A stretch of DNA of 64,000 nucleotides from Gammaproteobacteria bacterium. GTDB taxonomy: Bacteria; Pseudomonadota; Gammaproteobacteria; DRLM01. Location: positions 64,110 to 128,109 of the forward strand of contig JAHFRV010000001.1 in NCBI GenBank assembly GCA_023266095.1. Direction: 5' to 3'. Under the pieces are notes generated by a model, which was not told the DNA's origin, made no database searches, and saw nothing but the letters and a program-made list of their open reading frames with translations. Positions 3,953 through 53,741 of this stretch are shown in pieces (the first letter of the stretch is position 1; each line of letters starts with the position of its first letter). Made by a program: the position numbers and the translations under genes.

Positions 3953-6316
3953 TTGTCAAGCATGCACAGCACATTAACCGGGATGCAGTCACAGGTGAGC
4001 GCAATCAAGCCAGCCACCACGAATCCGCCGCTACGGCGCACCCTCAGCCTTCGCAGCGGCTGGCGGGCCGCGTTGACGGTCATCGCACTTTGGTTATGCG
4101 GCTTCGGTCCCGCTCATGCCATTGACGCCAAAGACCTGTTGCCGCCGGACCAGGCTTATTCCTTCTCCGCCCGCAGCCTCGCCGCCGACATGGTGCGGGT
4201 GGAATGGCGCATCGCCGACGGCTATTACCTTTACCGCGACAAGCTGCGTTTTGAATCCGATCAGGGCGAGGTCGGGCTCGGCACACCGGTGCTGCCGCCG
4301 CCCACCGAGACCAAGACTGACGAGTTCTTCGGCAAAATGGCCATTTACCGCGGCACCCTCACCGTGGACATTCCCCTGCTGCGCGGCCGCGACGACCCCA
4401 CCAGCCAATTCACCCTGCGCGCCCATTCCCAAGGGTGCGCCGACGTCGGCGTGTGTTTCCCGCCCCACACTCAAACCGCCAACCTGCAATTGATCGACGC
4501 GCCCCCGGCGGCCGGCAATGGCGGCGGACTACGCGGCCTCTTTTCTTCGCTCGGCGACAAACTGGGGCTGAAATCCCAGCAGGAGGCATTTCTCGATCCA
4601 GAGCAGGCCTTTGTGGTCACCATCGATACCCCCGCCCCCGATCGCGCTGTCGCCCGCTGGCAAATCGCCGAAGGTTATTATCTTTACCGCGACAAATTCG
4701 CCTTCGCCTTGCATGACGCGGAAGGGGTAGCCCTCGGCAGTTACACCTTCCCGCCCGGCGTCGAAAAAGTAGACGAGAGCTTCGGCCGCAGCGAGGTTTA
4801 CCACAATCACGTCAGCTTCGAACTCCCCCTGACGCGTAATACCACGAGCGCGCAAGTGGTGACGCTGGAAGTCCGTTATCAAGGTTGTGCCGATGCGGGT
4901 TTGTGTTATCCGCCCATCATCAAAAACCTGCCGGTGAGTCTGCCGGCCGCAGGCAGCGCCGTCGCCGCGAACCCACCCGCCCTCCCGTCCAGCATCGGCG
5001 GATTCATCTCCGAGCAAGACCGCTACGCCCAATCGCTGCAAAGCGGCGACCGTCTCGCCACCCTCTTAAGTTTTTTCGGTGTAGGCATCCTGCTGGCCTT
5101 CACCCCCTGCATATTCCCCATGCTGCCCATCCTCTCGACACTAATAGTGGGTCAAGGCGCCGCTGTGACCACCCGGCGGGCCTTCAGCCTGTCGCTGGCC
5201 TATGTGCTGGCGATGGCCGTCACCTACACCATTGCGGGAATCTTGGCGGGCTTGTTCGGCGCCAACCTGCAAACAGCCTTTCAAAACCCATGGATCATCG
5301 GTGGCTTCAGCGTGTTATTCGTCGTGCTGGCGCTGGGCATGTTCGGTTTTTACAACCTGCAAGTGCCGGCCAGCTGGCAGACCAAGCTCAGCGAACTCAG
5401 CAATCGGCAAAAGAGTGGCACCCTGATCGGCGCCGCGGTGATGGGTTTCCTCTCCGCCCTCATCGTCGGCCCCTGCGTGGCCGCGCCACTGGCGGGTGCA
5501 TTGATCTACATCGGCCAGACCGGTGACGCGGTACTGGGCGGCTTCGCCTTATTCGCCATGAGCATGGGCATGGGCTTGCCCTTGTTGGCGATCGGCACCT
5601 CGGCCGGTAAGTGGCTGCCCAAGGTCAGCGGGTGGATGAATACCGTCAAGGCCATCTTCGGCGTCTTACTGTTGGCCCTTGCGATCTGGATGCTGGAGCG
5701 CGTCATCCCGCCGCAACTCGGCCTGGTGTTGTGGGGCATCCTGCTCATCATCACGGCGGTCTACATGGGTGCCTTCGACCGGTTGCTGCCCGACGCTACC
5801 GGCTGGCGCAAATTGTGGAAAGGCTCGGGCCTGGTGCTTATGTTATACGGCGCTTTGCTGCTGGTGGGCGCCGCCGGTGGCGGCAACGATGTATTGCAAC
5901 CCTTGCGCGGCGTCAGCTTCGCCTCATCGTCCGGCGCCAACGAAACACACGACCTCCGCTTCACCCGCATCAAGGGCCAGGACGGCCTCAACCAAGCCTT
6001 GGCCGGCGCCAACGGTAAAACCGTGATGCTGGACTTCTATGCTGACTGGTGCGTGAGCTGCAAAGAAATGGAGCGCAACACCTTCTCCGATGCCAAAGTG
6101 CAAGCCGCCTTGGCGAACACCCTTCTGTTACAGGCCGACGTCACCGCCAACGACCAGCAAGACCAAGCCCTGCTCAAACAATTCGGTCTGTTCGGTCCGC
6201 CCGGCATCGTCTTTTTCGACGCTCGCGGCACGGAACAGCGGCCCTATCGATTGGTGGGTTACCTCGGGCCCGAGGCCTTCGCGGCTCATATCCACCGAAC
6301 CTTCAACGGCTCATAA
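3953..6316 (+). CDS. dsbD: Thiol:disulfide interchange protein DsbD (N-terminal periplasmic domain, 8-TM core, C-terminal thioredoxin domain)
   Basis: 787 aa; signal peptide, central polytopic region, C-terminal ...FYADWCVSCKEMERNTF... thioredoxin motif; start may be an internal Met. Confidence 0.9.
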   Translation: MSSMHSTLTGMQSQVSAIKPATTNPPLRRTLSLRSGWRAALTVIALWLCGFGPAHAIDAKDLLPPDQAYSFSARSLAADMVRVEWRIADGYYLYRDKLRFESDQGEVGLGTPVLPPPTETKTDEFFGKMAIYRGTLTVDIPLLRGRDDPTSQFTLRAHSQGCADVGVCFPPHTQTANLQLIDAPPAAGNGGGLRGLFSSLGDKLGLKSQQEAFLDPEQAFVVTIDTPAPDRAVARWQIAEGYYLYRDKFAFALHDAEGVALGSYTFPPGVEKVDESFGRSEVYHNHVSFELPLTRNTTSAQVVTLEVRYQGCADAGLCYPPIIKNLPVSLPAAGSAVAANPPALPSSIGGFISEQDRYAQSLQSGDRLATLLSFFGVGILLAFTPCIFPMLPILSTLIVGQGAAVTTRRAFSLSLAYVLAMAVTYTIAGILAGLFGANLQTAFQNPWIIGGFSVLFVVLALGMFGFYNLQVPASWQTKLSELSNRQKSGTLIGAAVMGFLSALIVGPCVAAPLAGALIYIGQTGDAVLGGFALFAMSMGMGLPLLAIGTSAGKWLPKVSGWMNTVKAIFGVLLLALAIWMLERVIPPQLGLVLWGILLIITAVYMGAFDRLLPDATGWRKLWKGSGLVLMLYGALLLVGAAGGGNDVLQPLRGVSFASSSGANETHDLRFTRIKGQDGLNQALAGANGKTVMLDFYADWCVSCKEMERNTFSDAKVQAALANTLLLQADVTANDQQDQALLKQFGLFGPPGIVFFDARGTEQRPYRLVGYLGPEAFAAHIHRTFNGS

Positions 6317-6328
6317 CAGGGAATCAGC

Positions 6329-6895
6329 ATGGCCGTCAGCGACCTTCTCAAACGACCCGCCGTCGTTTTCTCCGCCATCGCCCTGATAGGTGTGGTGTTC
6401 GCGGCCGCCGGGATATTCAGCGAACTCTCGGACAAAAAACAACAGGCGCAGGATCCGGCCGCAGTGAAAGGTATCGTCAGCCAACCCCGCCCCGAGTTCA
6501 CCCTGCCCGACCTTACCGGCGCCCCGCACGCCATCAAAGAATGGGATGGCAAGGTAATCGCGATTAACTTCTGGGCTACCTGGTGTCCGCCCTGCAAACG
6601 GGAGATTCCCAGCTTCAACGCCTTGCAAGCGGAAATGGGCGCGGCCGGCCTGCAGTTCGTCGGCATCGCCATCGACGACCATAAATCCGTCGTGGAGTAC
6701 ACCCAAGACACTACTATCAGTTACCCGGTGCTGGTGAGCGAGGACGACGGCATCGCGGTCGCCCAGCAATACGGCAATACGACAGGGATACTGCCCTATA
6801 CTGTGATCATCGACCGCCAAGGTCGGGTTGCCTTCGCCCGTTACGGCGAGCTCAGCGAGGCTACGGCACGCCAAGTCATACTCTCCCTGCTCTAA
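6329..6895 (+). CDS. TlpA/ResA/DsbE-like membrane-anchored thiol-disulfide oxidoreductase (redoxin)
   Basis: N-terminal TM anchor, WATWCPPCKREIP thioredoxin active site. Confidence 0.8.
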   Translation: MAVSDLLKRPAVVFSAIALIGVVFAAAGIFSELSDKKQQAQDPAAVKGIVSQPRPEFTLPDLTGAPHAIKEWDGKVIAINFWATWCPPCKREIPSFNALQAEMGAAGLQFVGIAIDDHKSVVEYTQDTTISYPVLVSEDDGIAVAQQYGNTTGILPYTVIIDRQGRVAFARYGELSEATARQVILSLL

Positions 6896-34450: not shown

Positions 34451-34628
34451 GGTTTTTCTCTGTGTTTGATCTCAGCCGCGGAAAAGGGTGATGTGCCGCA
34501 GTCTACAAATATTGCAGTCGCAACGTCTTTGCAATGGATGCATTATCAAGAACCGGCCTTCCTTATTTAAATTTAAGTGCGGTGTCCGGAAGTCAAAGTC
34601 CCCGGTTACCCGATTAAAATCTCGCTGC

Positions 34629-34994
34629 TCAAGGCAAGAGCTTTTTTTCACCATCGCTGAATACCGCGTCGATGGAGTGAAGACCGCCCGGAACAGTGAG
34701 AACCAACGTCCCTTCACCAATATTTTTTGCCGGCAGCGCTACAGCACACTTTTCCTTGATGCCACAGCGTATGAATTGCAACTTTTGGCGCCCATCGCTC
34801 AGCCCGATATTTGCCCCTGGTGAATAATGAACAGACTCCAGCATTGGACGGTAGGTTACTTTAATAGCCCCATCCTTCTCCTGCACAACAGAGAGAATTT
34901 CAACGTCTGATAGTTTGTATTGATCCATGGCTTGCCCACAAGAAGAAATGGCCATCATCGAGCTTATCACTATAATGATGGAGAGCCTGTTCAT
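34629..34994 (-). CDS. Small lipoprotein (121 aa), candidate periplasmic immunity protein
   Basis: Signal peptide + lipobox ISSCG; start overlaps the stop of the upstream candidate effector (ATGA); AT-richer. Confidence 0.5.
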   Translation of the reverse strand: MNRLSIIIVISSMMAISSCGQAMDQYKLSDVEILSVVQEKDGAIKVTYRPMLESVHYSPGANIGLSDGRQKLQFIRCGIKEKCAVALPAKNIGEGTLVLTVPGGLHSIDAVFSDGEKKLLP

Positions 34995-35488
34995 TTGGCA
35001 CCCGCCTTTTTCTTCATAAAGCTCGATGCCGGGTTTTGCTGAAGTGGCTTAGGGCTGAAGAGAGTGGTTGGCTGCTGCTTCTCAAGCAGAAGGATGTTTC
35101 TACCCAACTCACGAGGGGTTTCGAATCCGCCATAGTCGTCCGCATCGACATCCTCTCCCACCACCTCTTCGACGACTTCGCTTGCCCATGACGCGCAGGT
35201 GTTGGTGTAGCGCCAAGCGACGTTAGCCTGCATAAGCGCATTGAAGTGCCTCGCCTGCGCATCTGAAAGCCCATACTATCGGCTGGCGACGGCCTTCTGA
35301 GCAGCCTCCATTCCAATTCTGATATCCGACTTGTCGCCGTTATCAAGCACGTTCGGATGAGCGTCTGGCCAGAGCCCATAGACCGTTGTCTTTCCATCGT
35401 GGGTAATCGCTAGCCATGCATGTCCAGCCGTAATATCCTTATCGTTCCCGGCATCATTACTATGTATTCCAAAAACCATATTCCCCAT
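34991..35488 (-). pseudogene. Candidate T6SS effector (~165 codons) interrupted by an in-frame amber (TAG) codon after codon 70; His-before-Cys permuted papain-like (NlpC/P60-LRAT-type) motifs
   Basis: ORF track gives two same-frame ORFs (35276..35488 and 34991..35233) separated by one TAG; strong SD (AAAGGGGGTGAAGA) before the first ATG; motifs GHAWLAI and YTNTCASWA. Confidence 0.45.
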
Positions 35489-36311: not shown

Positions 36312-36716
36312 TCACTTTTTAACTGGCCTGCTGCCGGTGCACACGTCTCCCATGTCTATGCCATTTAGCCATTGCTCAAGAACCTTAATGCGGTCTGCCG
36401 TAAAGTCTCCCAATACTTGGCATCTGCACGTTGAATAAATCGAACCATACTCAGGGCTCGGGCCGTGAGGGTAGATTAGCTCTAATTGAGCTTCTTTGTA
36501 GGCCACCCAACTCTGTTGGGATTTTCTTAGCTTGCGAATGAATTGTTGATCATGCCTGTATTTCGAGATAAGTTGTTTGTAAATCGCAACTAACTTTGCC
36601 TCCGATGTTCTCAATTGGTTGCAGGTTGATTCTTCGGCCGTCTCGCCCGCAAAGCCAAAATAAGGATAGAAAAGTAGACTTGCGAATAACACAACACCTA
36701 TGTGAAGGGGTTTCAT
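36312..36716 (-). CDS. LprI/DUF1311-family (lysozyme-inhibitor-like) secreted protein, candidate immunity for the adjacent lysozyme effector
   Basis: Signal peptide; DUF1311 pattern C..Q..W..Y...C...C; directly downstream of the GH24 gene. Confidence 0.7.
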   Translation of the reverse strand: MKPLHIGVVLFASLLFYPYFGFAGETAEESTCNQLRTSEAKLVAIYKQLISKYRHDQQFIRKLRKSQQSWVAYKEAQLELIYPHGPSPEYGSIYSTCRCQVLGDFTADRIKVLEQWLNGIDMGDVCTGSRPVKK

Positions 36717-36725
36717 GATCTGTTC

Positions 36726-37220
36726 TCACTTGTTAAATAATTCCGTCTCTCTGCTGCGGCGCCTCGTTAGGCCAGCAAGTATTTTTCCAGAAGACTTATC
36801 GTAAAGTTTCATCTTATCTGGTACTTTCGATAGATCGAGTTTTCCATCTTTACCAGTGCAAGCGGCCAAAACGTTCGCCAGATTGCCCATCCCGACGTTG
36901 TATGTAAAAGAAACGAGGGCATCAAACTGGTTTTGTGTAAGAGTGGCCCCGAGCGCCCCCACCTTTGTATTGACTGCATCTTCTGCCGTCTTTGTATCCT
37001 TCGTTAATAGGCTATCCCCTTCGTTCTGAGTAATGCCCTTCTGAAAAATTTTCTCATTTTCTTTTCCATCGCATTTTCCCGGGTGAACCAAATGCCCCCA
37101 ACCGATGGTGCAATGACCGCCTCCATCGGTATCGTAGAGGTGGGCTTGAAAAGTCTCAAAATCTTGAATTAACTTTAGCCCCGCAGAGCCGAGGGTCATG
37201 CCTAGTGAAGTATTTGCCAT
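36726..37220 (-). CDS. GH24 phage-type lysozyme (muramidase), candidate T6SS peptidoglycan-targeting effector
   Basis: No signal peptide; LKLIQDFETFQAHLYDTDGGGHCTIGWGH (catalytic Glu/Asp/Thr spacing as in T4 lysozyme) and C-terminal RRRSRETELF. Confidence 0.8.
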   Translation of the reverse strand: MANTSLGMTLGSAGLKLIQDFETFQAHLYDTDGGGHCTIGWGHLVHPGKCDGKENEKIFQKGITQNEGDSLLTKDTKTAEDAVNTKVGALGATLTQNQFDALVSFTYNVGMGNLANVLAACTGKDGKLDLSKVPDKMKLYDKSSGKILAGLTRRRSRETELFNK

Positions 37221-38332: not shown

Positions 38333-38797
38333 CTAATCGAACAACTCCCAAAAAACATAACTGTCCCACTGAAAGGGTGGACAGGAAGCCACTAGATCCT
38401 TGTGCTGCGATATCTCAATACTCCGCCCAATCACCCGAATCGATCGAAGATGCGTCTCACAATCCCGCGACGTGGTGGGCTGGCGCTTTGAGGATTCGAT
38501 GAGAACATAACGATAGTCAGCTACCTCAACGATTCGGAAGTTCCCCGTCATGTCCCTGTGAAAATTGCATGGCCATGGAATATGCAGGTTGTAAATTTGG
38601 GTCTTGCCATCAGCAGTAGCGGCTGCAAAACAGGCTTCCCCGCGGCCCTCCAATCGTATCGAGAACTGACCTATGTTTAGCTCATCCTCTAAGTCATTTA
38701 TTTCACCCGCCGTACCACAGGATACGACGGCTAAACTAGTAATCGCGGCCATCACCAAACGCCTATGGATTTGACTCATGGCAGTTCCCAAAACCAA
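38333..38797 (-). CDS. Lipoprotein (154 aa), candidate Tai4-like immunity protein
   Basis: Signal peptide with VVSCG lipobox; 11 bp downstream of the Tae4-like gene; AT-richer. Confidence 0.5.
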   Translation of the reverse strand: MVLGTAMSQIHRRLVMAAITSLAVVSCGTAGEINDLEDELNIGQFSIRLEGRGEACFAAATADGKTQIYNLHIPWPCNFHRDMTGNFRIVEVADYRYVLIESSKRQPTTSRDCETHLRSIRVIGRSIEISQHKDLVASCPPFQWDSYVFWELFD

Positions 38798-38808
38798 ACC
38801 TGGGAAGA

Positions 38809-39207
38809 TTAGTTTGCCGGATCAGAAAACGTTTTTGTTAATCCTCGGTTCCATAAATCGATGTGATCGCCAGTTCTCGCGCGCTCGCCTGATCGCGCAA
38901 AGCAGTCTTTGAAGAAAATCATGCCAGCCTTGCGACTTAAAGCAATTTTGGCCTTGGCTCCCTCTGCATATATCATGGGCCGACCAAGACGATTTTTCCA
39001 AAGCCAGCTGGCCAACGACTCGGCTCCCCGAGCATGGCCATGACTGCATTTTGGCTCTGAATAAGTGTTTTTATTCACTTTGATTGTCTGCTCCGCGTTG
39101 AGGGCTATGCTCATACGAATTGAGCATTGGTTCTCCCAGTTGTCGTCGCACGGAAAAGATTCTGTTGGGTAGTTTGACCACAAATTAATGAAGCTGGGTT
39201 TTGACAT
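38809..39207 (-). CDS. tae4: Tae4-family T6SS peptidoglycan amidase effector (papain-like Cys-His)
   Basis: MSKPSFINLW..., ...NQCSIRMS..., ...GDHIDLWNRG... match the Tae4 N-terminus, catalytic Cys and His motifs; start set at Met with SD spacing 9. Confidence 0.7.
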   Translation of the reverse strand: MSKPSFINLWSNYPTESFPCDDNWENQCSIRMSIALNAEQTIKVNKNTYSEPKCSHGHARGAESLASWLWKNRLGRPMIYAEGAKAKIALSRKAGMIFFKDCFARSGERARTGDHIDLWNRGLTKTFSDPAN

Positions 39208-39299
39208 GTGACTCATCCTTCCCTGGGAAGAGGGCGATTTTAGCACTCCCACAAACCGCAGGATTTCCCTGGGGAGCGGCCGCAGCGCCGCTTCATAAC

Positions 39300-39339: not shown

Positions 39340-39825
39340 TCAGAGCTTCTTGTTGGCGGAGATGTCCCACTTGAATTGCTTGGGCGCCTCGCCGGTGCCG
39401 TCGTCCTTCTGCTGAACATAGTCGACGTTGACTTCGGCGAAATTCAGCGAGACGTTCTCGGTGAGGCGGTCCTCACCGCCGCTGCCGCCGGTGGCTACCG
39501 AACTCACCATCACTTTCTTCATCACTATCTTGATGTATTCGAGCGGCCCCTTACCACCGGCCTTGCGGACCACCAGCGTGGCGTCCGGTATGTGCTCGCC
39601 GCTCGCACAATAGAGCATCAGCAGGGGCGAAGCCACGTCCACCCACTTGGTCAAGGTCAGGTCGTTGAAGTTGGCCTTGCCCGCGCCACCGCCGCCGCCG
39701 CTCTGAAAAGAACCCGACTGCGACAGCCCCCAACTCCAGGCCAATACATCGATCTCACCTTTGTGTTTGTCATCCGTCGACTCGCCCTTGATACCCGCAA
39801 CCTTGATGAACATATCTACGGCCAT
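39340..39825 (-). CDS. hcp: T6SS inner tube protein Hcp
   Basis: 161 aa MAVDMFIKVAGIKGESTDDKHKGEIDVLAWSWG... Confidence 0.95.
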   Translation of the reverse strand: MAVDMFIKVAGIKGESTDDKHKGEIDVLAWSWGLSQSGSFQSGGGGGAGKANFNDLTLTKWVDVASPLLMLYCASGEHIPDATLVVRKAGGKGPLEYIKIVMKKVMVSSVATGGSGGEDRLTENVSLNFAEVNVDYVQQKDDGTGEAPKQFKWDISANKKL

Positions 39826-45230: not shown

Positions 45231-48200
45231 CTACAACCTCGCCGGGCAGCGAAAGGCCTGCACGTCTTTATTGACGAAAGGATTGAACACACTGCTGGCC
45301 TGGAGCTCATAGCGCGCCTTGCGGCCCTCGACCTCGAAGCTCACGGCGATGCGATCCGGAGCCAGCACCTCGACCCGCGACTGATCCAGCACCCGGAACC
45401 AGGCCCAGGTTCCTTCTTTGCTCAGGCTCGCACGCTGCCCGCCGCCTTCGAATATCACCCGGGTCTGGGGCGGACCGGCACTGCCGGGCCACTGCGCAGA
45501 CTCGGGGCGGGCAGGACCATGGCGGTAAGTAAACTGCTGGCCATCGATGTCCAGCAGGAACTGGCTGACCTCGGCATCGAGATAGAGCGGCTTGAGCGCA
45601 AAACGCACCCCTGGCCGGTTGCCGCCACCTTGAAAATAAGTCTGTTTGATCGCCTGGGCACGGCGGAACTGGCGCAAGGCCTCGTCGGAGAACACCAGCC
45701 CCGCTCCCGCGGCGACACGCCATTGTCCTCCCGAGGTATCGATGAAGGGCTGAAGATTCTCCATGAAAAACTTGTCGAGCAGCCCGCCGGGGCCGAAGAG
45801 CTGAGCGAAGTCGTCCAACGTGACTTCGCGCGTACCGTTGGGGAAAAACGGATAGCGACCGGCCAAGGCCCGCTCGCATTGCGGCAAGATCGTGCCCGTC
45901 CATTTCGCGTTGAGTTCGCCGCGCGCCCCGCCCACGGTCGCCGCGCGGCTACCGCCGCCCAACTCCGCCAGCCAAGCGCTGAGCGGCGCGGGCTGGCGGG
46001 CGGCCTCGATCTGCACCCGCCGCAGAATGTCGCCGCCACCCTGCTGCGCCGCTTGTAGGCTCGCGCCGGGCAGTGCTCCGCTCAGACTATTGAGATAGCC
46101 ATACAGATCCGACAGCAGCGCCATCACCTGATCGAGCGGCGGCGCGCCGCCCTCACCACGCACCAGCCGGCTGAGGCGGACATAGTGGCGCTCGATGACT
46201 TGTTCCGGCGGCAATTCGGCGACCTCGGTCTTCTTACCCGTCAAACCCTCGACCAGGCGCGAAAGCTGGGTCTTCTCGGCCGCCTGCTTGGCGAGATCGC
46301 CGACCGTCTTCTTGCCGCCGGGCCGCTCCGTCAAGGTGGTGTTGCGCACCACGGCATCCAGCAGCGCCCGCAGCGGCGAAGTCGGTCCCGACAGGATGCC
46401 CACCACCTCGGCCGCCTGGCCCACACTGGTGAAGGGTACGATACGCAGGTCGCTCAGCAGTTCGTCCCAGTAGCGTTCATAATCGGCCTGATACAGTTTG
46501 TTGATATTGGTTTCGAGCTCCTGCAACTCCGCCTGGCTCAGCGGATGCTCCGCCGTACCCAACACCCAGCTCTCGTCCTGGATCTGGCGGGCGCGATCCT
46601 CGCTCTGTGGCAGATAGACCTCGTAATAGCCGCGATAGGTATATAACCCCGGTATGGGTGCATCCAAGCCCGCGCCGCTCTTGCGCGCAAACACTTTTTG
46701 GCCGGACTCGCCCACCACATCGATCACCCGGAAAGGGATTTCGTCCCGCGCGAGATAATCGCGCTTGAGACGGCCGTAGACCAATTGCGCCAAGGACACC
46801 TGACGCAAACCCAGCCGCGCATCGTGCACCAGACCTTGGTCCAAGCCGACGGGCCGCACGCCTTCCTTGAGTAGGGTCTGAAAATGCTCCTCGAGCGGGC
46901 CATATTGATTGGGCGGCAGCGTAGTCTCCCAATCCAGACTCATCCACGCCCCCAGTTGGGCCGGATCCAAACGCGCCGGCACATTAAGCATGAGATAAAG
47001 TTTGAGCAGCTGATACTGTGCATCGGGATTACCCGCCGCCGCGCGCAACTGCTGTTCGATGCGCGTCGCGACCCGGGGTCGCAGCAGGGCATTGAGTTCA
47101 CGCACATAGGCATCCTGCGCACTCTCGCCGATGGCATTACCCTGATAAAGCCATAATCGCATATACCACGGCACATGGTCGGCATGGGCCTGTGCCATGG
47201 CAACCACCTGTTTGAGTGCATCCAGCCGCGGCAGCAGCGCACTGAAGTCCGCGTCATCCGGCAAGAGTTTGTTTGCTTCCGCTTGATAAGCGGCCAGGCT
47301 GGCCTGCACCTCGCCGACATAACGCTTGTTGGCGGTAAAGCTCGCCGACCAGGCGACGGCCGCGACCACGGTGACGAGCAGCGCCGCGGCATAGGCGCCG
47401 CGTTGCAACCAGGCACGCTGGATCTCGAAGCGCCGGTTGCTGCCGACGATGCGCGCTTCCGGAAACACCACCCGTTTGAGCAGATCGGTCAAAAAATAAC
47501 TGCGGCCGTGGCCGGTGAACGAGGCCAGCATCTGACGTTCTAGCCTGAAGGTACGGGCGACACCGGCGACCAGCCGGTCGATGGGTGCGCCCTCTTGAGT
47601 GCCGCTGGTAAAGTAGACGCCGCGCAGCAGGCTCGCCTCTTCGAAACGACTGACGCCGAATACCGCCCGCAGAAATTCGCTCATGGCCGGTTTGAGCGCG
47701 GCCAGCTGCTGCGGAAAACCGTAGATCAAGGCACGCCGCTGCAAATCGCGCTCCTGCTGCAAACGCGGCCACAGGCGCTGATCCAGCCGCGTCATCAACG
47801 CGTCGAACTCGGCGCCGAACTGATCCACCGCGCCGGCCTCGCTCGCGGCGAGCGCAAAGCTCATGCCCCACACCTGGGCCCGCTCCTCCTTGCCGAGGTC
47901 TTCGAAAAACTCGGTGAAGCCCGCCAGCAAGTCGCATTTGGTGAACATGAAATAGACGGGGAAACGCACGCCCAGCGACTGCCGCAATTCGAGGATACGT
48001 TGATGGATGGCGCGCGCATGCGCCAGGCGTTCTTCGGGGCTTTGGGTCAAAAGATCGGCAAGGCTCATTGCTACCAGTGCGCCATTGATGGGCTGCCGCC
48101 GCCGATATTTCTTCAATAAGCCGAGAAAACCTTGCCAGGCGGCGCTGTCAACCGCAGCCTGACTGTCTTGGGTGGTATAGCGTCCGGCGGTATCGAGTAA

Positions 48201-48737
48201 CACTGCTTCGTTGGTGAACCACCAGTCGCAGTTGCGCGTGCCGCCGACGCCGCGCACCGCATCCTTGCCGTAACGCTCCGCCAGCGGGAATTCCAGGCCG
48301 GAATTGCGCAGCGCCGTGGTCTTGCCGCTACCGGGCGGACCGATGATGATGTACCAGGGCAAGTCATACAGACTGGGGCCCTGGCCTTTGCGCGCCGCCT
48401 TCTTGAGCAGGCTGACCGCCTCTTCGAAGCGCTCCTTCAAGGCGGCCACCTCTTCCACCGACTGCGTCTCTTCGGGGGAGGGCGGGGGTGCTTGCGAAAT
48501 GCCCTGCATGATCTGCTCGCTCGCCTTCGCGGCGCGCAGACGCTTCCAGAGCCGATGCAGCCCGAAGCCGAGGAACACTAGGCCGATGCACACCAGCCGG
48601 GCGATCAGTCCTTCCAGCGGCCGGTAATCGGCGAAGGCGAGATAAGGCCCTGCGAACAGGATGATTAGGGCGAGCGCGCTCAGGCCCAGCAGCGTCATCA
48701 CCCAACGTCGTTTGAAAATACCCAAGAGTTTTTTCAT
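45231..48737 (-). CDS. tssM: T6SS membrane complex protein TssM (IcmF)
   Basis: 1168 aa; N-terminal TMs, Walker A GPPGSGKTT, IcmF-related domains. Confidence 0.95.
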   Translation of the reverse strand: MKKLLGIFKRRWVMTLLGLSALALIILFAGPYLAFADYRPLEGLIARLVCIGLVFLGFGLHRLWKRLRAAKASEQIMQGISQAPPPSPEETQSVEEVAALKERFEEAVSLLKKAARKGQGPSLYDLPWYIIIGPPGSGKTTALRNSGLEFPLAERYGKDAVRGVGGTRNCDWWFTNEAVLLDTAGRYTTQDSQAAVDSAAWQGFLGLLKKYRRRQPINGALVAMSLADLLTQSPEERLAHARAIHQRILELRQSLGVRFPVYFMFTKCDLLAGFTEFFEDLGKEERAQVWGMSFALAASEAGAVDQFGAEFDALMTRLDQRLWPRLQQERDLQRRALIYGFPQQLAALKPAMSEFLRAVFGVSRFEEASLLRGVYFTSGTQEGAPIDRLVAGVARTFRLERQMLASFTGHGRSYFLTDLLKRVVFPEARIVGSNRRFEIQRAWLQRGAYAAALLVTVVAAVAWSASFTANKRYVGEVQASLAAYQAEANKLLPDDADFSALLPRLDALKQVVAMAQAHADHVPWYMRLWLYQGNAIGESAQDAYVRELNALLRPRVATRIEQQLRAAAGNPDAQYQLLKLYLMLNVPARLDPAQLGAWMSLDWETTLPPNQYGPLEEHFQTLLKEGVRPVGLDQGLVHDARLGLRQVSLAQLVYGRLKRDYLARDEIPFRVIDVVGESGQKVFARKSGAGLDAPIPGLYTYRGYYEVYLPQSEDRARQIQDESWVLGTAEHPLSQAELQELETNINKLYQADYERYWDELLSDLRIVPFTSVGQAAEVVGILSGPTSPLRALLDAVVRNTTLTERPGGKKTVGDLAKQAAEKTQLSRLVEGLTGKKTEVAELPPEQVIERHYVRLSRLVRGEGGAPPLDQVMALLSDLYGYLNSLSGALPGASLQAAQQGGGDILRRVQIEAARQPAPLSAWLAELGGGSRAATVGGARGELNAKWTGTILPQCERALAGRYPFFPNGTREVTLDDFAQLFGPGGLLDKFFMENLQPFIDTSGGQWRVAAGAGLVFSDEALRQFRRAQAIKQTYFQGGGNRPGVRFALKPLYLDAEVSQFLLDIDGQQFTYRHGPARPESAQWPGSAGPPQTRVIFEGGGQRASLSKEGTWAWFRVLDQSRVEVLAPDRIAVSFEVEGRKARYELQASSVFNPFVNKDVQAFRCPARL

Positions 48738-48739
48738 GA

Positions 48740-50050
48740 CTACGGCGAACCCCCCGCCAAGAGCGCGATCTCGACCCGCCGATTGCGGGCACGGTTGGCG
48801 GCACTGTCATTGGGCGCCAGGGGCTCGGTATCGGCGCGTCCCTCGGCGAGCAAGCGTCCCGGTGCGTGCATCGCGGCCGCCAGAACCTTCACTACCTCCG
48901 CCGCGCGCGCGCGCGACAGTTCCCAGTTCGACTGGAAGTTCAACGAGCGGATCGGGATATCATCGCTGTGGCCCGTCACCACGACCTGCCCCGGCACCTG
49001 CGCCAGCGCCTGCGCGATGCGCTCAAGAAGAGGCAGATAGCCGGCCTCCACCCGCGCGCTGCCCGAGGCGAAGAGGCCGTCACCCCGTAATGTGATAGTG
49101 GCGCTGGCCGACTCTTCACGCAGTTCGATCTTTCCTTCCGCGATCTCGGACCGCAGCAGATCGGCCAGCAGCAGCCGAGTGGGCGCGACGGGGAACGCCG
49201 GTTCCGCTTTGGGCGCAACACGGCCGACGCCGTCGAGCGCGCGGAATACCGGATCGGTGTCGTTGCCGAGACTGAAACGGAAGGCAAGGTAGATGGCCAG
49301 CAGCAGCGACGCCGCCAGGACACCGACCACCCACAGCGGCACATAACGCGCAAGGTCGGCGCGCGGTTCTTCAATCCCGCGCCAATGCGGCGAGAGTTCA
49401 CGTTCGACCTCGCCGCGCTGGGTACGCAACAGACGGAACAACGCCTCGCGGATCTCTTCGAGCTTAGCCCGGCCCCGCTCCATGATGCGGTATTTGCCTT
49501 CGAAACCCAGCGTCAGGCAGAGCGCCATGAATTCGAGCAGCTGCAGGTGCCGCGCCGGTTCCCGACCAAGACTTTCCAAGATAAGGAAAAACCGCTCGCC
49601 GCCCTTGGCTTCGTTGTGGAAAGTAATGAGCAGACTGTGCTGTCCCCATAAACTGGTGCTGCCCCAGGGTGTGTTGAGCACGGTCTCGTCGATCAGACTG
49701 CACAAGGCATAACGCGCGGCGGCCACCGACTCCGGCGTCGCCCCCCCGGCACGGGCCTTTTGTTCGAATTCTTTTATTTCCTGGACGACCCGCGCCCGCA
49801 GTCCTTCCACATCGGGATGACTGGCCGCAATACGCAACTGACCAGTCAGGGACAACAAGATGGCGGCGGCGCTGATCAGCGGATTTTGATTCGCCGTCGT
49901 CCACGCCGGCAGGGCGGTGTCGTAATTATTAACGGAAGCCGGCGGCGGTAGGGGGGGTATGCCCGGCGGCGGACGACGCCCTCCCGGCGTGGGCCGGATG
50001 ATGGTGCGGTCGGCGTCGCCGGGGCCGAATACGCTATCGTCGGTGGCCAT
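48740..50050 (-). CDS. tssL: T6SS membrane complex protein TssL (DotU) with C-terminal OmpA/MotB-like peptidoglycan-binding extension
   Basis: 436 aa; DotU domain then TM then ...VVVTGHSDDIPIRSLNFQSNWELSRARAAEV...RNRRVEI OmpA-like. Confidence 0.9.
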   Translation of the reverse strand: MATDDSVFGPGDADRTIIRPTPGGRRPPPGIPPLPPPASVNNYDTALPAWTTANQNPLISAAAILLSLTGQLRIAASHPDVEGLRARVVQEIKEFEQKARAGGATPESVAAARYALCSLIDETVLNTPWGSTSLWGQHSLLITFHNEAKGGERFFLILESLGREPARHLQLLEFMALCLTLGFEGKYRIMERGRAKLEEIREALFRLLRTQRGEVERELSPHWRGIEEPRADLARYVPLWVVGVLAASLLLAIYLAFRFSLGNDTDPVFRALDGVGRVAPKAEPAFPVAPTRLLLADLLRSEIAEGKIELREESASATITLRGDGLFASGSARVEAGYLPLLERIAQALAQVPGQVVVTGHSDDIPIRSLNFQSNWELSRARAAEVVKVLAAAMHAPGRLLAEGRADTEPLAPNDSAANRARNRRVEIALLAGGSP

Positions 50051-50072
50051 CGCAGAGCTAAGCGGCGCGACG

Positions 50073-50366
50073 CTAGGAGCGTCCGCTTGAGCGCCGGGTT
50101 AGCACTCTTGATGCACGTTTATATATAAGAATTGCCGCCATTGTTATGCATGTAACCAATATAAGCGATACCACTAGTCCAAATATTATTCCTACCGTTG
50201 CTACATCCTCGGCCGTTTTAGCAGAAGCGGCATCCGTAATCCATATTGAAAGAGATTCTGGTATTTGTGGAAATAAGTTTGGGTTGTAGTACCACGTATA
50301 CGCCAGCGTTACAGACGAAGCCAGAATCCAAGTTGCCAGAATTGACTTTTTATGCGCGGAAGTCAT
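50073..50366 (-). CDS. Small 2-TM membrane protein (97 aa), candidate immunity for the Tlde1-like effector
   Basis: Start overlaps the effector stop (ATGA); AT-rich; two hydrophobic helices. Confidence 0.45.
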   Translation of the reverse strand: MTSAHKKSILATWILASSVTLAYTWYYNPNLFPQIPESLSIWITDAASAKTAEDVATVGIIFGLVVSLILVTCITMAAILIYKRASRVLTRRSSGRS

Positions 50367-50848
50367 TTAACCACCACAGTTCCATAGGCCAATATGTCGG
50401 TGTCTTTTATCTTCATTGGCTTGCTGGACTTCAACAGTGCACGGATGTGGTTAAAGTGGCTCGGATTTTCAATGGTGATACATCCTTTGCTGATACCAAA
50501 ACCCGTCTTTGGGTGCAGTCTGAAATTTCCACGCCCGACGTGATTGCAATATGTTTTATCATCAATGCGCCCGTCATTAGCATAGAGGGAGAACCAATCC
50601 TTGTGACCCTTTATGCGATCCCATAGCGGGCCAAGAAAACCTCCGGATTGGCGATCAAGAATAAAATACGTTCCGGGAGGGATAGGTCCAAGGTCTGGAG
50701 TACAAGCAAATATTCGTTTATTCACGTAGCTCCCAAGACCAGAGAATGCGGAAAATGACATTGCTCCAATCTTGAATTGGCTCAATGGCTGGTTGTTCAG
50801 TTCAAAACTACATTGTTGCATTGGGAGAGCCTCCTTTGGTGTTGGCAA
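50363..50848 (-). CDS. tlde1: Tlde1-family (DUF2778) L,D-transpeptidase-like T6SS effector
   Basis: ...MQQCSFELNNQPLSQF...GPIPPGTYFILDRQSGG...FRLHPKTGFGISKGCITI... with the His-x(n)-S-x-G-C LDT catalytic motif; no signal peptide; AT-rich. Confidence 0.7.
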   Translation of the reverse strand: MPTPKEALPMQQCSFELNNQPLSQFKIGAMSFSAFSGLGSYVNKRIFACTPDLGPIPPGTYFILDRQSGGFLGPLWDRIKGHKDWFSLYANDGRIDDKTYCNHVGRGNFRLHPKTGFGISKGCITIENPSHFNHIRALLKSSKPMKIKDTDILAYGTVVVK

Positions 50849-50864
50849 AAAGCGCTAACTGTAC

Positions 50865-52196
50865 CTAACTCCGTATCGCCCACAACTCCAGTTTCAAACC
50901 GGGAAACTCGCCGGCCACATGAAAGGCGATGTCGCCGGTCTCTTCGATCTGCCGCCAATATTCGTTGGGCCGTTCCAATTCCAGATAGACATAGCCCGCG
51001 TAAAAAGGCAGCTGGCGCGGCGCCACCGCCAGCGGCCGCATGCCGATGCCCGGCAAGGCCAGATTGACCAGTTCGTGGATGCGCTCCTTGGGTCCGATCT
51101 TGACCTGCGCCGGGAAACGGCTGCGCAACTCCTCCGTGGTGATATCCGCCTTCACCGCTAACACGAACACCGCCTGCGCCAGCAGACTGCGATCGGCCAC
51201 CGTCGCCACCCGGATGCCGTAACGGTGTTCTTGCAGTACGATGGGCACGGCCGCCTGTGCCAGCACCTTGCTGAGCGCCGTGCGCAATTCCGCCATCACG
51301 GGCTCATAACTCGCCCGCAATTTTTCGTGCTCGTAGGGCGGAAAGGCGATCGGGCGTTTGCTGTCGCTGGTGAAGGTCGCCAGCTCTCCCGCCATCGCCA
51401 CGGCCAGACCGAAGAAATCCGCGGGATGCACACCGCCCAAGCTCGCATAGTGGGCCACCACTGGCTCATAGCGGTTGATGGCTTGCAACAATAGAAAATC
51501 GGCGATCTCCGCCGCCCCGCCCTTGCCAGTGGCGGATACCCTTACCGCCAAGCTGTCGGCACGATGGTGCAGACGTCCCTGCAATTCCTTGATGAAGCCG
51601 GTCAGCACCGTCGCGGCCTGCACGTCGAGTACCGGCGGGATGTAGCCCTCATCGAGCACCACCTGTTTGTCGGCACGACGTTCAACGATGCGCGCCACAC
51701 CGAGACACACATAGTCGTCGCGCCGCTCCCGCTCCAGCAACAGACGGGTGCGCAAACTGGCCACCTGCACCGGCGCGGTGGTACCGGGCGCGGGCGTGGT
51801 GTCGCGCAGCTCTTCTTCGCGGAGCACGGCACGCGCCGCGGACGAACCCGTACCGCCGTCGATCTCCAACTGCCCCGGCCGCCGCACGGGGAGGGCGAGA
51901 AAGACTTCGACGCCCTGCACATCGGCGGGAATGTCCAGCGGCGCCGGCAGCAGATCGTCGACGGGAATATTGAAAGGCGTACCGTCGGGGAACACCCCGC
52001 GCGCGGCGGCGATACCCAGTTTGCCGAGCCCGAGCAGGCCGTCGTCGAGTTTGATATCCCGATAACCCCAGCCATAGGGACGCAAGCCGCCGCAGCGTCC
52101 TTCCACCAGGGCTTCCACATAACGCGCCTCCTGCTGGAAGTGCTGCGGCCGCAGAAACATGCCCTCCGACCAGACGATTTTGTTATTCCATGACAT
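50865..52196 (-). CDS. tssK: T6SS baseplate protein TssK
   Basis: MSWNNKIVWSEGMFLRPQHFQQ... TssK N-terminus; start set at internal ATG (ORF-track start is an upstream GTG). Confidence 0.9.
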   Translation of the reverse strand: MSWNNKIVWSEGMFLRPQHFQQEARYVEALVEGRCGGLRPYGWGYRDIKLDDGLLGLGKLGIAAARGVFPDGTPFNIPVDDLLPAPLDIPADVQGVEVFLALPVRRPGQLEIDGGTGSSAARAVLREEELRDTTPAPGTTAPVQVASLRTRLLLERERRDDYVCLGVARIVERRADKQVVLDEGYIPPVLDVQAATVLTGFIKELQGRLHHRADSLAVRVSATGKGGAAEIADFLLLQAINRYEPVVAHYASLGGVHPADFFGLAVAMAGELATFTSDSKRPIAFPPYEHEKLRASYEPVMAELRTALSKVLAQAAVPIVLQEHRYGIRVATVADRSLLAQAVFVLAVKADITTEELRSRFPAQVKIGPKERIHELVNLALPGIGMRPLAVAPRQLPFYAGYVYLELERPNEYWRQIEETGDIAFHVAGEFPGLKLELWAIRS

Positions 52197-52213: not shown

Positions 52214-52744
52214 TTATTTTTCGGCGAATACCGCCTGCACGGCGAGGCGCTCGATGCTGATGTTCAACACCCGTTCCTTCTTGGCGAAGGGATTGAGCTT
52301 GCTCATGAGACCGGCTTTCTTCTCGCCCACCTCGACCAACCCACGCCACTGTGATTGATCGATATCGCGAAAAGCCACGGCAACGCCGAGAAAATGCGTC
52401 TCCGCATCGAGTTCGAGGGGGAGATCACGGCTCTCGGCCGGGCGCAGCGTGATTTCGTCGCGACGGACCAGCTCCGCGCCTAGGGTCGCCTGCTCCTGTT
52501 CGTAGAGGGGAAAGAAATCCGTCTTCTGAAAGGCGCTCGCACCGCGCAATTGATAGATGCGCACCACCACCGGTGAGGCGCGGCCGTCGTGATCGGGATT
52601 GACCGTGCTTGCCGCCACGACATGCGTAGCGAGTTTTTCCACCACGGCACCGGACCGCCCGGACTTCGCGCCGCCCGCACAACCACCGATCAGGGCCACA
52701 CCCAGACACAAGCTTGCCAAACCGATGAGTCCACGCGCACTCAC
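52214..52744 (-). CDS. tssJ: T6SS outer-membrane lipoprotein TssJ
   Basis: 176 aa; lipobox LIGGC; ...PVVVRIYQLRG... TssJ signature. Confidence 0.85.
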   Translation of the reverse strand: MSARGLIGLASLCLGVALIGGCAGGAKSGRSGAVVEKLATHVVAASTVNPDHDGRASPVVVRIYQLRGASAFQKTDFFPLYEQEQATLGAELVRRDEITLRPAESRDLPLELDAETHFLGVAVAFRDIDQSQWRGLVEVGEKKAGLMSKLNPFAKKERVLNISIERLAVQAVFAEK

Positions 52745-53495: not shown

Positions 53496-53741
53496 ATGCC
53501 TTCCCAATATAGGGCGCCCAGAGCGGGCGCATTGCTGGCTGACCAAGGCTACGATACTGATGCGCTGCTGGAGACACTCAGGGAAAGCAATATCGATGCG
53601 GTAATTCCGCCCAAAGCCAAGCGCAAGATGCAGCATCCCTGTGACTGGCATGTATACAAGGAGCGCCACCTGATACAGTGTTTTTTCGGCAAGAGTAAAC
53701 ACTATCGCCGAATCTTTCACCTTACGAGAAAGGGGCGGTGA
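53496..53741 (+). mobile_element. IS5-family (IS427-group-like) transposase C-terminal remnant
   Basis: ...LLADQGYDTDALLETLRESNIDAVIPPKAKRK...YKERHLIQCFFGKSKHYRRIFHLTRK matches the DDE transposase C-terminus; no N-terminal part. Confidence 0.6.

Follow-up and report, generated by a model that had tools for sequence, protein, structure and literature searches.

A low-GC cassette between tssK and tssL of a gammaproteobacterial type VI secretion cluster probably encodes a Tlde1c-type effector and a two-helix membrane immunity protein

What do two overlapping, AT-rich genes do in the middle of the core operon of a type VI secretion system (T6SS)? The question is raised by a stretch of 64,000 nucleotides (nt) from Gammaproteobacteria bacterium (GTDB lineage DRLM01; assembly GCA_023266095.1, contig JAHFRV010000001.1, positions 64,110 to 128,109 of the forward strand), hereafter called the window, in which a cassette of about 0.8 kb lies between tssK and tssL. 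Its first gene encodes a Tlde1-family (DUF2778) protein, and its second gene a protein of 97 amino acids (aa) with two predicted transmembrane (TM) segments. We hold with good, though not complete, confidence that this is a horizontally acquired effector-immunity cassette of the Tlde1c type, whose toxin would be delivered by the T6SS to act on the tetrapeptide stems of peptidoglycan, and whose membrane hairpin would protect sister cells. Coordinates are those of the window unless another locus is named, and those of the main features are collected in Table 1.

A sequence-only reading of the window had proposed an L,D-transpeptidase-like effector of the Tlde1 (DUF2778) family and had named a DUF2778 hidden Markov model (HMM) search as the way to check it. 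That search, the alignment of the catalytic motif to Tlde1a and the predicted fold all agree with the proposal. The effector matches the Pfam domain Tlde1_dom (PF10908, formerly DUF2778) over profile positions 3–117 of 120, scoring 110 bits where the cutoff is 30.1 (E 1.2e-31). The His…Ser-x-Gly-Cys motif that had been picked out by eye is present in the maximal open reading frame (ORF; 50363-50848, minus strand), which carries RLHPKTGFGISKGCIT; in the numbering of a 152-aa protein it reads H103…S111-K-G113-C114-I, and its His-Cys spacing is shorter than that of YkuD. By alignment to Tlde1a, H103 and C114 are assigned as the catalytic residues and R97 and G113 as those of the D-amino-acid pocket, and all four are invariant across 26 effector homologues. 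When the profile of these homologues was aligned to Tlde1a with hhalign over 109 columns, RGNFRLHPKxxxGISKGCITI fell opposite RGGFYIHDSTKGYSHGCIEV, so that R97, H103, G113 and C114 pair with R115, H121, G130 and C131 of Tlde1a. In that protein, H121 and C131 are needed for toxicity (preprint 10.1101/2020.02.18.954545), and R115 and G130 form the D-amino-acid pocket (PMC9638812).

The AlphaFold2 (AF2) model of the effector (predicted local distance difference test score, pLDDT, 81.8; predicted template-modelling score 0.80) has an L,D-transpeptidase-like beta-sandwich fold. A Foldseek search of this model against the PDB returned the Tlde1a structures 7UMA, 7UO3 and 7UO8 as best matches (E ~6e-6, probability 1.00, template-modelling score ~0.6, 19–20% identity), followed by bona fide L,D-transpeptidases of A. 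baumannii and V. cholerae. A phmmer search of the effector against PDB sequences did not reach Tlde1a; the link came through the fold search and the profile alignment. In the hhalign alignment the capping-subdomain insert of Tlde1a is absent from the effector. NCBIfam gave no meaningful match for the effector or the 97-aa protein, and PADLOC gave no match. As far as sequence and modelled fold can tell, the effector is a Tlde1-family enzyme with the L,D-transpeptidase fold, belonging to a compact, cap-less branch, with a predicted rather than a measured activity.

The 161-aa ORF of the sequence-only reading does exist, running from a TTG at 50848, but its protein is probably shorter. Given that close homologues are all ~152 aa long with a first residue corresponding to the Met encoded at 50821, and that the ATG at this position has an AAGGAGG Shine-Dalgarno sequence 8 nt ahead of it, the true start is probably ATG 50821, which yields 152 aa; the source metagenome contig likewise carries a gene call of 152 aa. 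The same reading had noted the lack of a signal peptide, and we likewise found neither a signal peptide nor a lipobox in the effector, nor an N-terminal hydrophobic segment, the maximum of a 19-aa Kyte-Doolittle window being 0.71 for starts 1–20 and 0.93 overall. The protein is basic, with 19 K/R vs 11 D/E counted from the sequence.

These properties bear on whether the Tlde1-like protein might instead be a housekeeping enzyme of peptidoglycan remodelling, as has been considered for some DUF2778 proteins outside T6SS-bearing taxa. The L,D-transpeptidase fold would suit that role, and many homologues sit among ordinary metabolic genes; yet an enzyme with no signal peptide or lipobox could not reach the producer's own substrate by way of Sec. 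A housekeeping role also fits poorly with the strict pairing with a small membrane protein, with the patchy distribution of a low-GC mobile cassette that occurs on phages and plasmids, and with the host T6SS operon itself, which carries three further low-GC islands besides this cassette, two of them clear wall-effector/immunity pairs (Tae4-like; lysozyme with LprI). We therefore regard the housekeeping explanation as highly improbable.

The second gene begins within the stop of the first: the ATGA overlap appears as tcat on the plus strand at 50363-50366, and the two hydrophobic segments that the sequence-only reading had seen in its product are indeed there. The layout is that of a basic N-terminal tail, a first TM segment at ~8–25, an acidic loop of ~37 aa with a short helix, a second TM segment at ~58–82 and a basic C-terminal tail. 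Hydrophobicity is strong at 63–81 (Kyte-Doolittle 2.69) and weaker at ~8–24 (15-aa peak 1.69), and an AF2 model built on a shallow alignment places helices at 4–27, 37–47 and 52–94. The same plan holds across a family of proteins of 81–106 aa, two outliers aside, for which a 4-sequence profile recovered 81 clusters (50% identity) among 1.84 billion representatives. Its members share a nearly invariant Trp in the first hydrophobic helix, a second helix that is the stronger of the two and is followed by a basic C-terminal tail, and an acidic loop of ~38 residues with the motif NPDxFPxxPExFxxWLxxLYGAxNAEExADLE. On average the N-terminal tail has 2.3 K/R and no D/E, the loop has 5.2 D/E vs 1.95 K/R, and the C-terminal tail has 4.0 K/R. 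Since this charge distribution fits the positive-inside rule, the partner is predicted to be an N-in/C-in hairpin with a periplasmic loop, leaving only ~7 and ~16–23 residues facing the cytoplasm.

Is this small protein the immunity protein of the effector? Under another answer the Tlde1-type toxin is real but its immunity determinant lies somewhere else, the 97-aa ORF being non-functional or encoding an adaptor, a chaperone or a membrane accessory of the T6SS. Several observations lean that way. The ORF was left uncalled by the gene caller in the source contig of the window (6456-6749 of locus L001), and a word-index search found 3 homologues only. No relative of the protein was found in Pfam, NCBIfam, PHROG, PADLOC or the PDB, nor did it match DUF2195, the family of the soluble protein Tldi1a, which is the known immunity protein of Tlde1a and is encoded upstream of its toxin. 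The idea, suggested by the word-index search, that the ORF is spurious or an orphan was overturned by the DNA downstream of 80 Tlde1 homologues together with the full HMM search.

For this comparison we assembled 80 loci with the nearest Tlde1 relatives from species-representative genomes, plus the cassette loci L001 and L002, and applied an HMM built from clear cases of the partner to the DNA downstream of the Tlde1 genes. Two loci could not be assessed, the contig ending <120 nt past the Tlde1 stop. A partner homologue follows immediately on the same strand in all 80 assessable loci, 69 of which show a 4-nt overlap (ATGA) between its start and the Tlde1 stop. These paired loci span Beta-, Gamma- and Deltaproteobacteria, and effector homologues occur in Burkholderiales, Pseudomonas, Ralstonia and Enterobacterales. 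When the window is compared with independent cassettes, the ratio of non-synonymous to synonymous substitution rates (dN/dS) is 0.05–0.06 for the toxin and 0.11–0.39 for the partner. These values lie well below 1 and show purifying selection on the toxin as well as on the partner; the partner is the faster to change, as is usual for effectors and their immunity proteins.

The most telling evidence comes from locus L145 (243-798), which belongs to another GC-rich genome. Here the Tlde1 gene is reduced to three out-of-frame fragments without the catalytic core, and the partner persists as an intact 92-aa membrane gene, 82% identical to the protein of the window and with a dN/dS of 0.13. This is the classic pattern of orphan immunity. 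Adjacent co-oriented genes, a fitting compartment, a faster-evolving partner and persistence as an orphan are all features expected of effector-immunity pairs in general. Because of the strict co-occurrence and translational coupling, the purifying selection and the intact copy beside a decayed toxin, the view of the 97-aa protein as the immunity protein of the effector, predicted from sequence, is strongly supported.

The same results leave little room for an adaptor, accessory or non-functional ORF. The protein is conserved in all 80 loci across three proteobacterial classes with its start-stop overlap kept, its dN/dS is well below 1 and its family is large. A chaperone should be cytoplasmic, and very little of the partner faces the cytoplasm. 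The partner is also retained without the toxin in L145. Moreover, the founding study of the effector family assigns TM-containing neighbours as the immunity proteins Tai7 (10.1101/2020.02.18.954545). We accordingly give this reading only a slight chance.

The DNA itself suggests how the pair came to lie where it does. GC content is 0.43–0.46 over ~50150–50900 against 0.60–0.68 in both flanks, as the sequence-only reading had remarked, and the position between tssL and tssK that it gave is borne out by PF05936 and TIGR03353 for tssK and by the DotU and OmpA domains of tssL. By blastn, two cassettes in unrelated contexts match the window: that of L144, whose flanks are AT-rich, at 81% over window positions 50844-50054, and that of L002, which lies beside an insertion sequence (IS), at 78% over 50851-50124. 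The span of this homology equals the full gap from the stop of tssK (50865) to the start of tssL (50050), the latter lying 22 nt past the stop of the 97-aa ORF. No convincing inverted repeats or target-site duplications were found flanking the cassette. Because no promoter-like site was found on either strand of the cassette and no terminator-like site on its coding strand (the lone match is weak, on the plus strand, at 50823-50835), the cassette is probably read as part of the tssJKLM transcript.

Related clusters show what the junction looks like when empty. In the closest relative on a long contig (locus L140; TssK 79% identical), the order is fha, tssJ, tssK, tssL, tssM, tagF, pppA, and the gap between tssK and tssL is 6 nt. 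In ~40 more relatives (TssK 44–57%), tssL comes next after tssK with no tblastn match to Tlde1 or the partner in between, and the gaps measure 9–30 nt wherever the TssL match begins at the N-terminus. From these comparisons the cassette appears as a precise insertion at the tssK-tssL junction. Strains with a TssK 98% identical to that of the window (L083 2263-2424; L137 3234-3393; samples ERZ27235094, JGI 3300005992 and SRR5580867) have other DNA immediately past the tssK stop, namely 17 codons that look like a leftover 5' end of tssL (SKDGSVITVGETDAYA, then a stop) and after them a new ORF with a strong ribosome-binding site (beginning MGKPLSRKQCIAQNMKTCKFV). Four independent contigs end at, or within ~160 nt after, the tssK stop. 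These short contigs hint that the junction is polymorphic among near-identical strains.

Beyond chromosomes, the two-gene architecture recurs on plasmids and temperate phages at ~40% toxin identity; blastn of the cassette DNA against plasmids gave no match. On a conjugative plasmid of Pseudomonas coronafaciens the module comes directly after hcp (Hcp-Tlde1-two-TM protein), and the Hcp-Tlde1-immunity arrangement is seen in loci L147 and L073, with Hcp upstream in the latter. The module is also present on Robbsia and Enterobacter plasmids, where the small ORF is unlisted in the gene tables (L146 ~4471-4755; L148 ~4488-4745); of the plasmid gene tables examined, three have no entry at its position. 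Among phages, 95 records carry the module (88 Ralstonia, 7 Burkholderia), and the toxin matches phrog_14093 (E 6e-46), annotated 'unknown function'. In phages JC1, phiBtTUL1a and vB_PR2c the two genes overlap by ATGA. The JC1 module corresponds to gp41/gp42, the former given as a DUF2778 protein with no comment in the paper on this phage (PMC9144972). Its site between terminase subunits, and that of the phiBtTUL1a module beside the integrase, are moron-like. The vB_PR2c module lies directly upstream of the phage's own annotated holin-endolysin genes. In phiBtTUL1a, a gene annotated as a T6SS PAAR-repeat protein is found ~3.6 kb from the module.

This distribution raises the possibility of a phage or mobile module that works independently of the T6SS, in which the two-TM protein would give a wall enzyme a class II holin- or pinholin-like exit for lysis, release or exclusion, and whose presence in the T6SS operon would be incidental or a recent co-option. 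The resemblance to a class II holin and endolysin is real: overlapping genes, a signal-less wall enzyme, a small N-in/C-in two-TM protein with a basic C-terminal tail, and occurrence in phages, in vB_PR2c right next to the lysis cassette. In addition, 79 of the 80 chromosomal relatives lack T6SS neighbours. Yet the partner matches no PHROG holin family at E <= 1 and is not the sole holin of a lysis cassette, for vB_PR2c has its own annotated holin and endolysin, and the modules of JC1 and phiBtTUL1a occupy moron-like positions; the order, with the enzyme first, also differs. Family members are experimentally known as T6SS substrates or as toxins neutralized by a neighbouring gene (10.1101/2020.02.18.954545; 10.64898/2026.08.01.741415), Hcp-linked copies exist, and the cassette of the window lies within the tssJKLM operon, lacking promoter-like sites on either strand and terminator-like sites on its coding strand. 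The weightiest point is again L145, where the membrane gene outlasts the enzyme and is kept under purifying selection, which fits immunity and not a holin. A T6SS-independent lysis or release module thus seems quite unlikely to us. A further view would see the module as primarily a self-sufficient unit spread by phages and plasmids and captured at the tssK-tssL junction, its partner either gating export of the enzyme in a holin-like manner or protecting at the inner-membrane face via lipid-linked precursors; to this we allow an outside chance.

Returning to the Tlde1c-type effector-immunity cassette that we favour, several points weigh against it. No vgrG or PAAR gene was found among the scanned larger ORFs of the window. 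Around the 80 nearest relatives of the cassette no T6SS core gene lies within 6 kb, and hcp is found upstream of just one of them; the genes next to them are housekeeping genes of unrelated kinds and a few transposases. Because of this, the core-operon location is an unusual feature of the copy in the window, T6SS linkage being exceptional in the sub-clade. OmpA-domain matches to TssL around the 80 related loci were considered and rejected, as they are not T6SS genes. Occurrence of the module in temperate phages leaves room for another primary role. The first TM segment of the 97-aa protein is only moderately hydrophobic, and the AF2 model of this protein is of modest confidence (pLDDT 68.5). 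The choice of Tlde1c rather than Tlde1b relies on indirect criteria, and activity, secretion and protection are all matters that we infer.

If a Tlde1c-type effector-immunity cassette is nevertheless the right description, the ~0.8 kb would have been acquired horizontally, inserted between tssK and tssL and co-transcribed with tssJKLM. The effector would be loaded into Hcp and fired into the periplasm of neighbouring Gram-negative cells, where its His/Cys site may act on the terminal D-Ala of tetrapeptide stems, cutting it off (L,D-carboxypeptidase activity) or swapping it (D-amino-acid exchange). Starved of acceptor stems, the D,D-transpeptidases would leave a weakened sacculus. In the producer, the inner-membrane hairpin could bind basic toxin arriving from sister cells with its acidic periplasmic loop (~37 residues) and block it. 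Considering that the founding study proposes small Tlde1 members as probable Hcp cargo (10.1101/2020.02.18.954545), and that Hcp-Tlde1-immunity arrangements occur in L147 and L073, the product of the hcp gene of the window is the likely carrier of this 17-kDa single-domain effector.

Table 1. Coordinates of the cassette, of its T6SS surroundings and of the phage modules (positions in the window unless a locus is named).
Feature	Coordinates	Strand	Remarks
Low-GC cassette, ~0.8 kb, effector and immunity genes with own ribosome-binding site	50054..50851	-	fills the entire tssK-tssL gap
Tlde1-family (DUF2778) L,D-transpeptidase-like effector gene	50363..50821	-	152 aa; PF10908; fold; homologues
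5' extension of the maximal ORF, TTG start	50822..50848	-	probably untranslated; contains the Shine-Dalgarno sequence for ATG 50821
Putative immunity gene (Tldi1c-like)	50073..50366	-	97 aa; start overlaps the Tlde1 stop
tssJ	52214..52744	-	lipoprotein; first of the tssJKLM block; PF12790, TIGR03352
tssK	50865..52196	-	baseplate; directly upstream of the cassette; PF05936 E 1e-153; TIGR03353; 443-aa homologues; maximal ORF reaches 52349
tssL	48740..50050	-	long form: DotU and OmpA-like peptidoglycan-binding domain
tssM	45231..48737	-	IcmF-related domains
hcp	39340..39825	-	PF05638 E 2.4e-41
Second low-GC island	38333-39252	-	between hcp and tagJ/ImpE; GC ~0.46-0.51
Third low-GC island	36312-37220	-	between tagJ and tssE; GC ~0.42-0.49
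Fourth low-GC stretch	34472-35488	-	between tssE and tssF; GC 0.46-0.56
IS5-type transposase fragment	53496-53741	+	just upstream of tssJ; DDE_Tnp_1_2, weak
Pfam-less ORF near clpV, 921 aa	14989-17754	-	
Pfam-less ORF near clpV, 506 aa	24548-26068	-	
Pfam-less ORF near clpV, 303 aa	21049-21960	-	
Pfam-less ORF near clpV, 174 aa	27269-27793	-	
Protein of 872 aa adjoining the Pfam-less ORFs	22066-24684		DUF7948, SBBP beta-propeller and DUF11 domains
Phage module, JC1 (L149)	5001-5752		ATGA overlap
Phage module, phiBtTUL1a (L150)	4992-5731		ATGA overlap
Phage module, vB_PR2c (L151)	4992-5743		ATGA overlap

The T6SS cluster of the window is complete, comprising tssJ, K, L, M, tagF, pppA, tssA, B, C, hcp, tagJ, tssE, F, G and clpV. 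Its three other low-GC islands are of varied content. In the second island, a Tae4-family amidase effector of 147 aa (PF14113, E 1.4e-14) precedes a protein of 154 aa whose N-terminus is lipoprotein-like (…AVVSCG…) and which is presumably its immunity protein. The third, likely a muramidase effector/immunity pair, holds a 164-aa protein with a Phage_lysozyme domain (E 4.7e-28) and then a protein of 134 aa that has a signal peptide and matches the lysozyme inhibitor LprI (E 3.9e-12). The fourth stretch contains small ORFs without a family match, among them a 121-aa ORF (34629-34994) with a lipoprotein-like N-terminus and two adjoining ORFs (35276-35488 and 34991-35233) that might be a single split gene; it may be a further effector/immunity pair, possibly decayed.

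The transposase fragment upstream of tssJ is followed by a housekeeping gene for coproporphyrinogen oxidase; in the closest relative (L140), fha and a divergent vgrG-Rhs region occupy this position. Near the clpV end, four ORFs of 921, 506, 303 and 174 aa have no Pfam match at E <= 0.001, and the 872-aa protein listed in Table 1 adjoins them.

The value of these observations lies chiefly in annotation and in the choice of experiments. The cap-less Tlde1 branch has a strictly conserved two-TM partner that belongs to no curated family and often goes unannotated, so that immunity genes of DUF2778 proteins can seem absent; this accounts for reports in which an immunity gene was not found. The pair is compact enough for asking how a membrane hairpin with a ~37-residue loop neutralizes a periplasmic peptidoglycan enzyme. 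How effector repertoires are assembled is illustrated by this 0.8-kb cassette, with its copies in temperate phages, on plasmids and at scattered places in chromosomes, and by the low-GC islands of the T6SS operon. What the present analysis adds is the definition of the two-TM partner family, the precise tssK-tssL insertion and the module's connection with temperate phages and plasmids.

Two-TM immunity proteins are commoner with membrane-targeting toxins than with peptidoglycan enzymes. Small integral-membrane immunity proteins of other T6SS effectors are, like the partner described here, anchored in the inner membrane with a short periplasmic segment, and their sequences are unrelated to it. 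Localization signals of immunity proteins are said to vary for homologues of the DUF4157 VgrG2b-type toxins, as cited in the founding study of the Tlde1 family (10.1101/2020.02.18.954545).

Among characterized systems, the nearest structural relative is Tlde1a/Tldi1a of Salmonella Typhimurium SPI-6 (STM14_0336/STM14_0335; PDB 7UMA). Both effectors have PF10908 and the L,D-transpeptidase-like fold, conserve the Arg, His and Gly-Cys residues of the active site and pocket, and are small, single-domain, signal-less proteins whose genes lie in a T6SS cluster, each in a bicistron with that of a small partner. They differ in length (173 aa vs 152 aa here), are only 19–20% identical and are not linked by phmmer. 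Tldi1a is encoded upstream and is a soluble, Sec-exported DUF2195 protein, whereas the partner in the window is encoded downstream in an overlapping gene and is predicted to be membrane-embedded. The window pair thus has neither the capping insert nor the upstream DUF2195 immunity gene that mark the Tlde1a subfamily. A likeness in position is found in Paraburkholderia T6SS-1, where a DUF2778 gene adjoins tssL and the authors could not find an immunity gene (PMC10434147). In P. sabiae this gene is paras_007252, for a putative effector in a core T6SS cluster; it lies after tssL, is followed by a GNAT gene and belongs to a different T6SS lineage.

The best fit is with Tae7/Tlde1c. The founding study (Sibinelli-Sousa et al. 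2020; preprint 10.1101/2020.02.18.954545) described the families Tae5/6/7, later renamed Tlde1a/b/c, as members of bicistrons with divergent immunity proteins, and reported in silico that those of Tae7/Tlde1c (Tai7) contain TM segments. It found Tae7 to be the most widespread family, including in Burkholderiaceae and Pseudomonadaceae, with 42.6% of Tae7-bearing genomes having Tae7 near T6SS genes (10.1101/2020.02.18.954545). Tlde1b and Tlde1c lack the capping insert (PMC9638812), and DUF2778 proteins have been detected as T6SS-secreted in Pantoea (preprint 10.64898/2026.08.01.741415). In the literature that we could search, we found neither an experimental study of a Tlde1c/Tldi1c pair nor a description of the partner family. 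The window pair shares with Tlde1c the TM-bearing partner, the lack of a capping insert, the distribution in Burkholderiales, Pseudomonas and Enterobacterales that takes in Burkholderiaceae and Pseudomonadaceae, and the habit of being often orphan or Hcp-linked, with a minority near T6SS genes; it differs in lying inside the tssJKLM core operon, unlike all 80 nearest relatives. The effector is therefore most consistent with Tlde1c/Tae7, judged by partner, insert and distribution and not by the published tree.

Set against these systems, the membrane character of the immunity protein, which the sequence-only reading had singled out, is no anomaly: an immunity role for the partner is well supported by the comparative evidence, and membrane immunity was already known in silico for Tae7/Tlde1c and is typical of this branch (10.1101/2020.02.18.954545). 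The cassette is a new example of an already described kind of system, whose partner family is here described in more detail, with two TM helices, an acidic loop motif and ATGA coupling to the effector gene.

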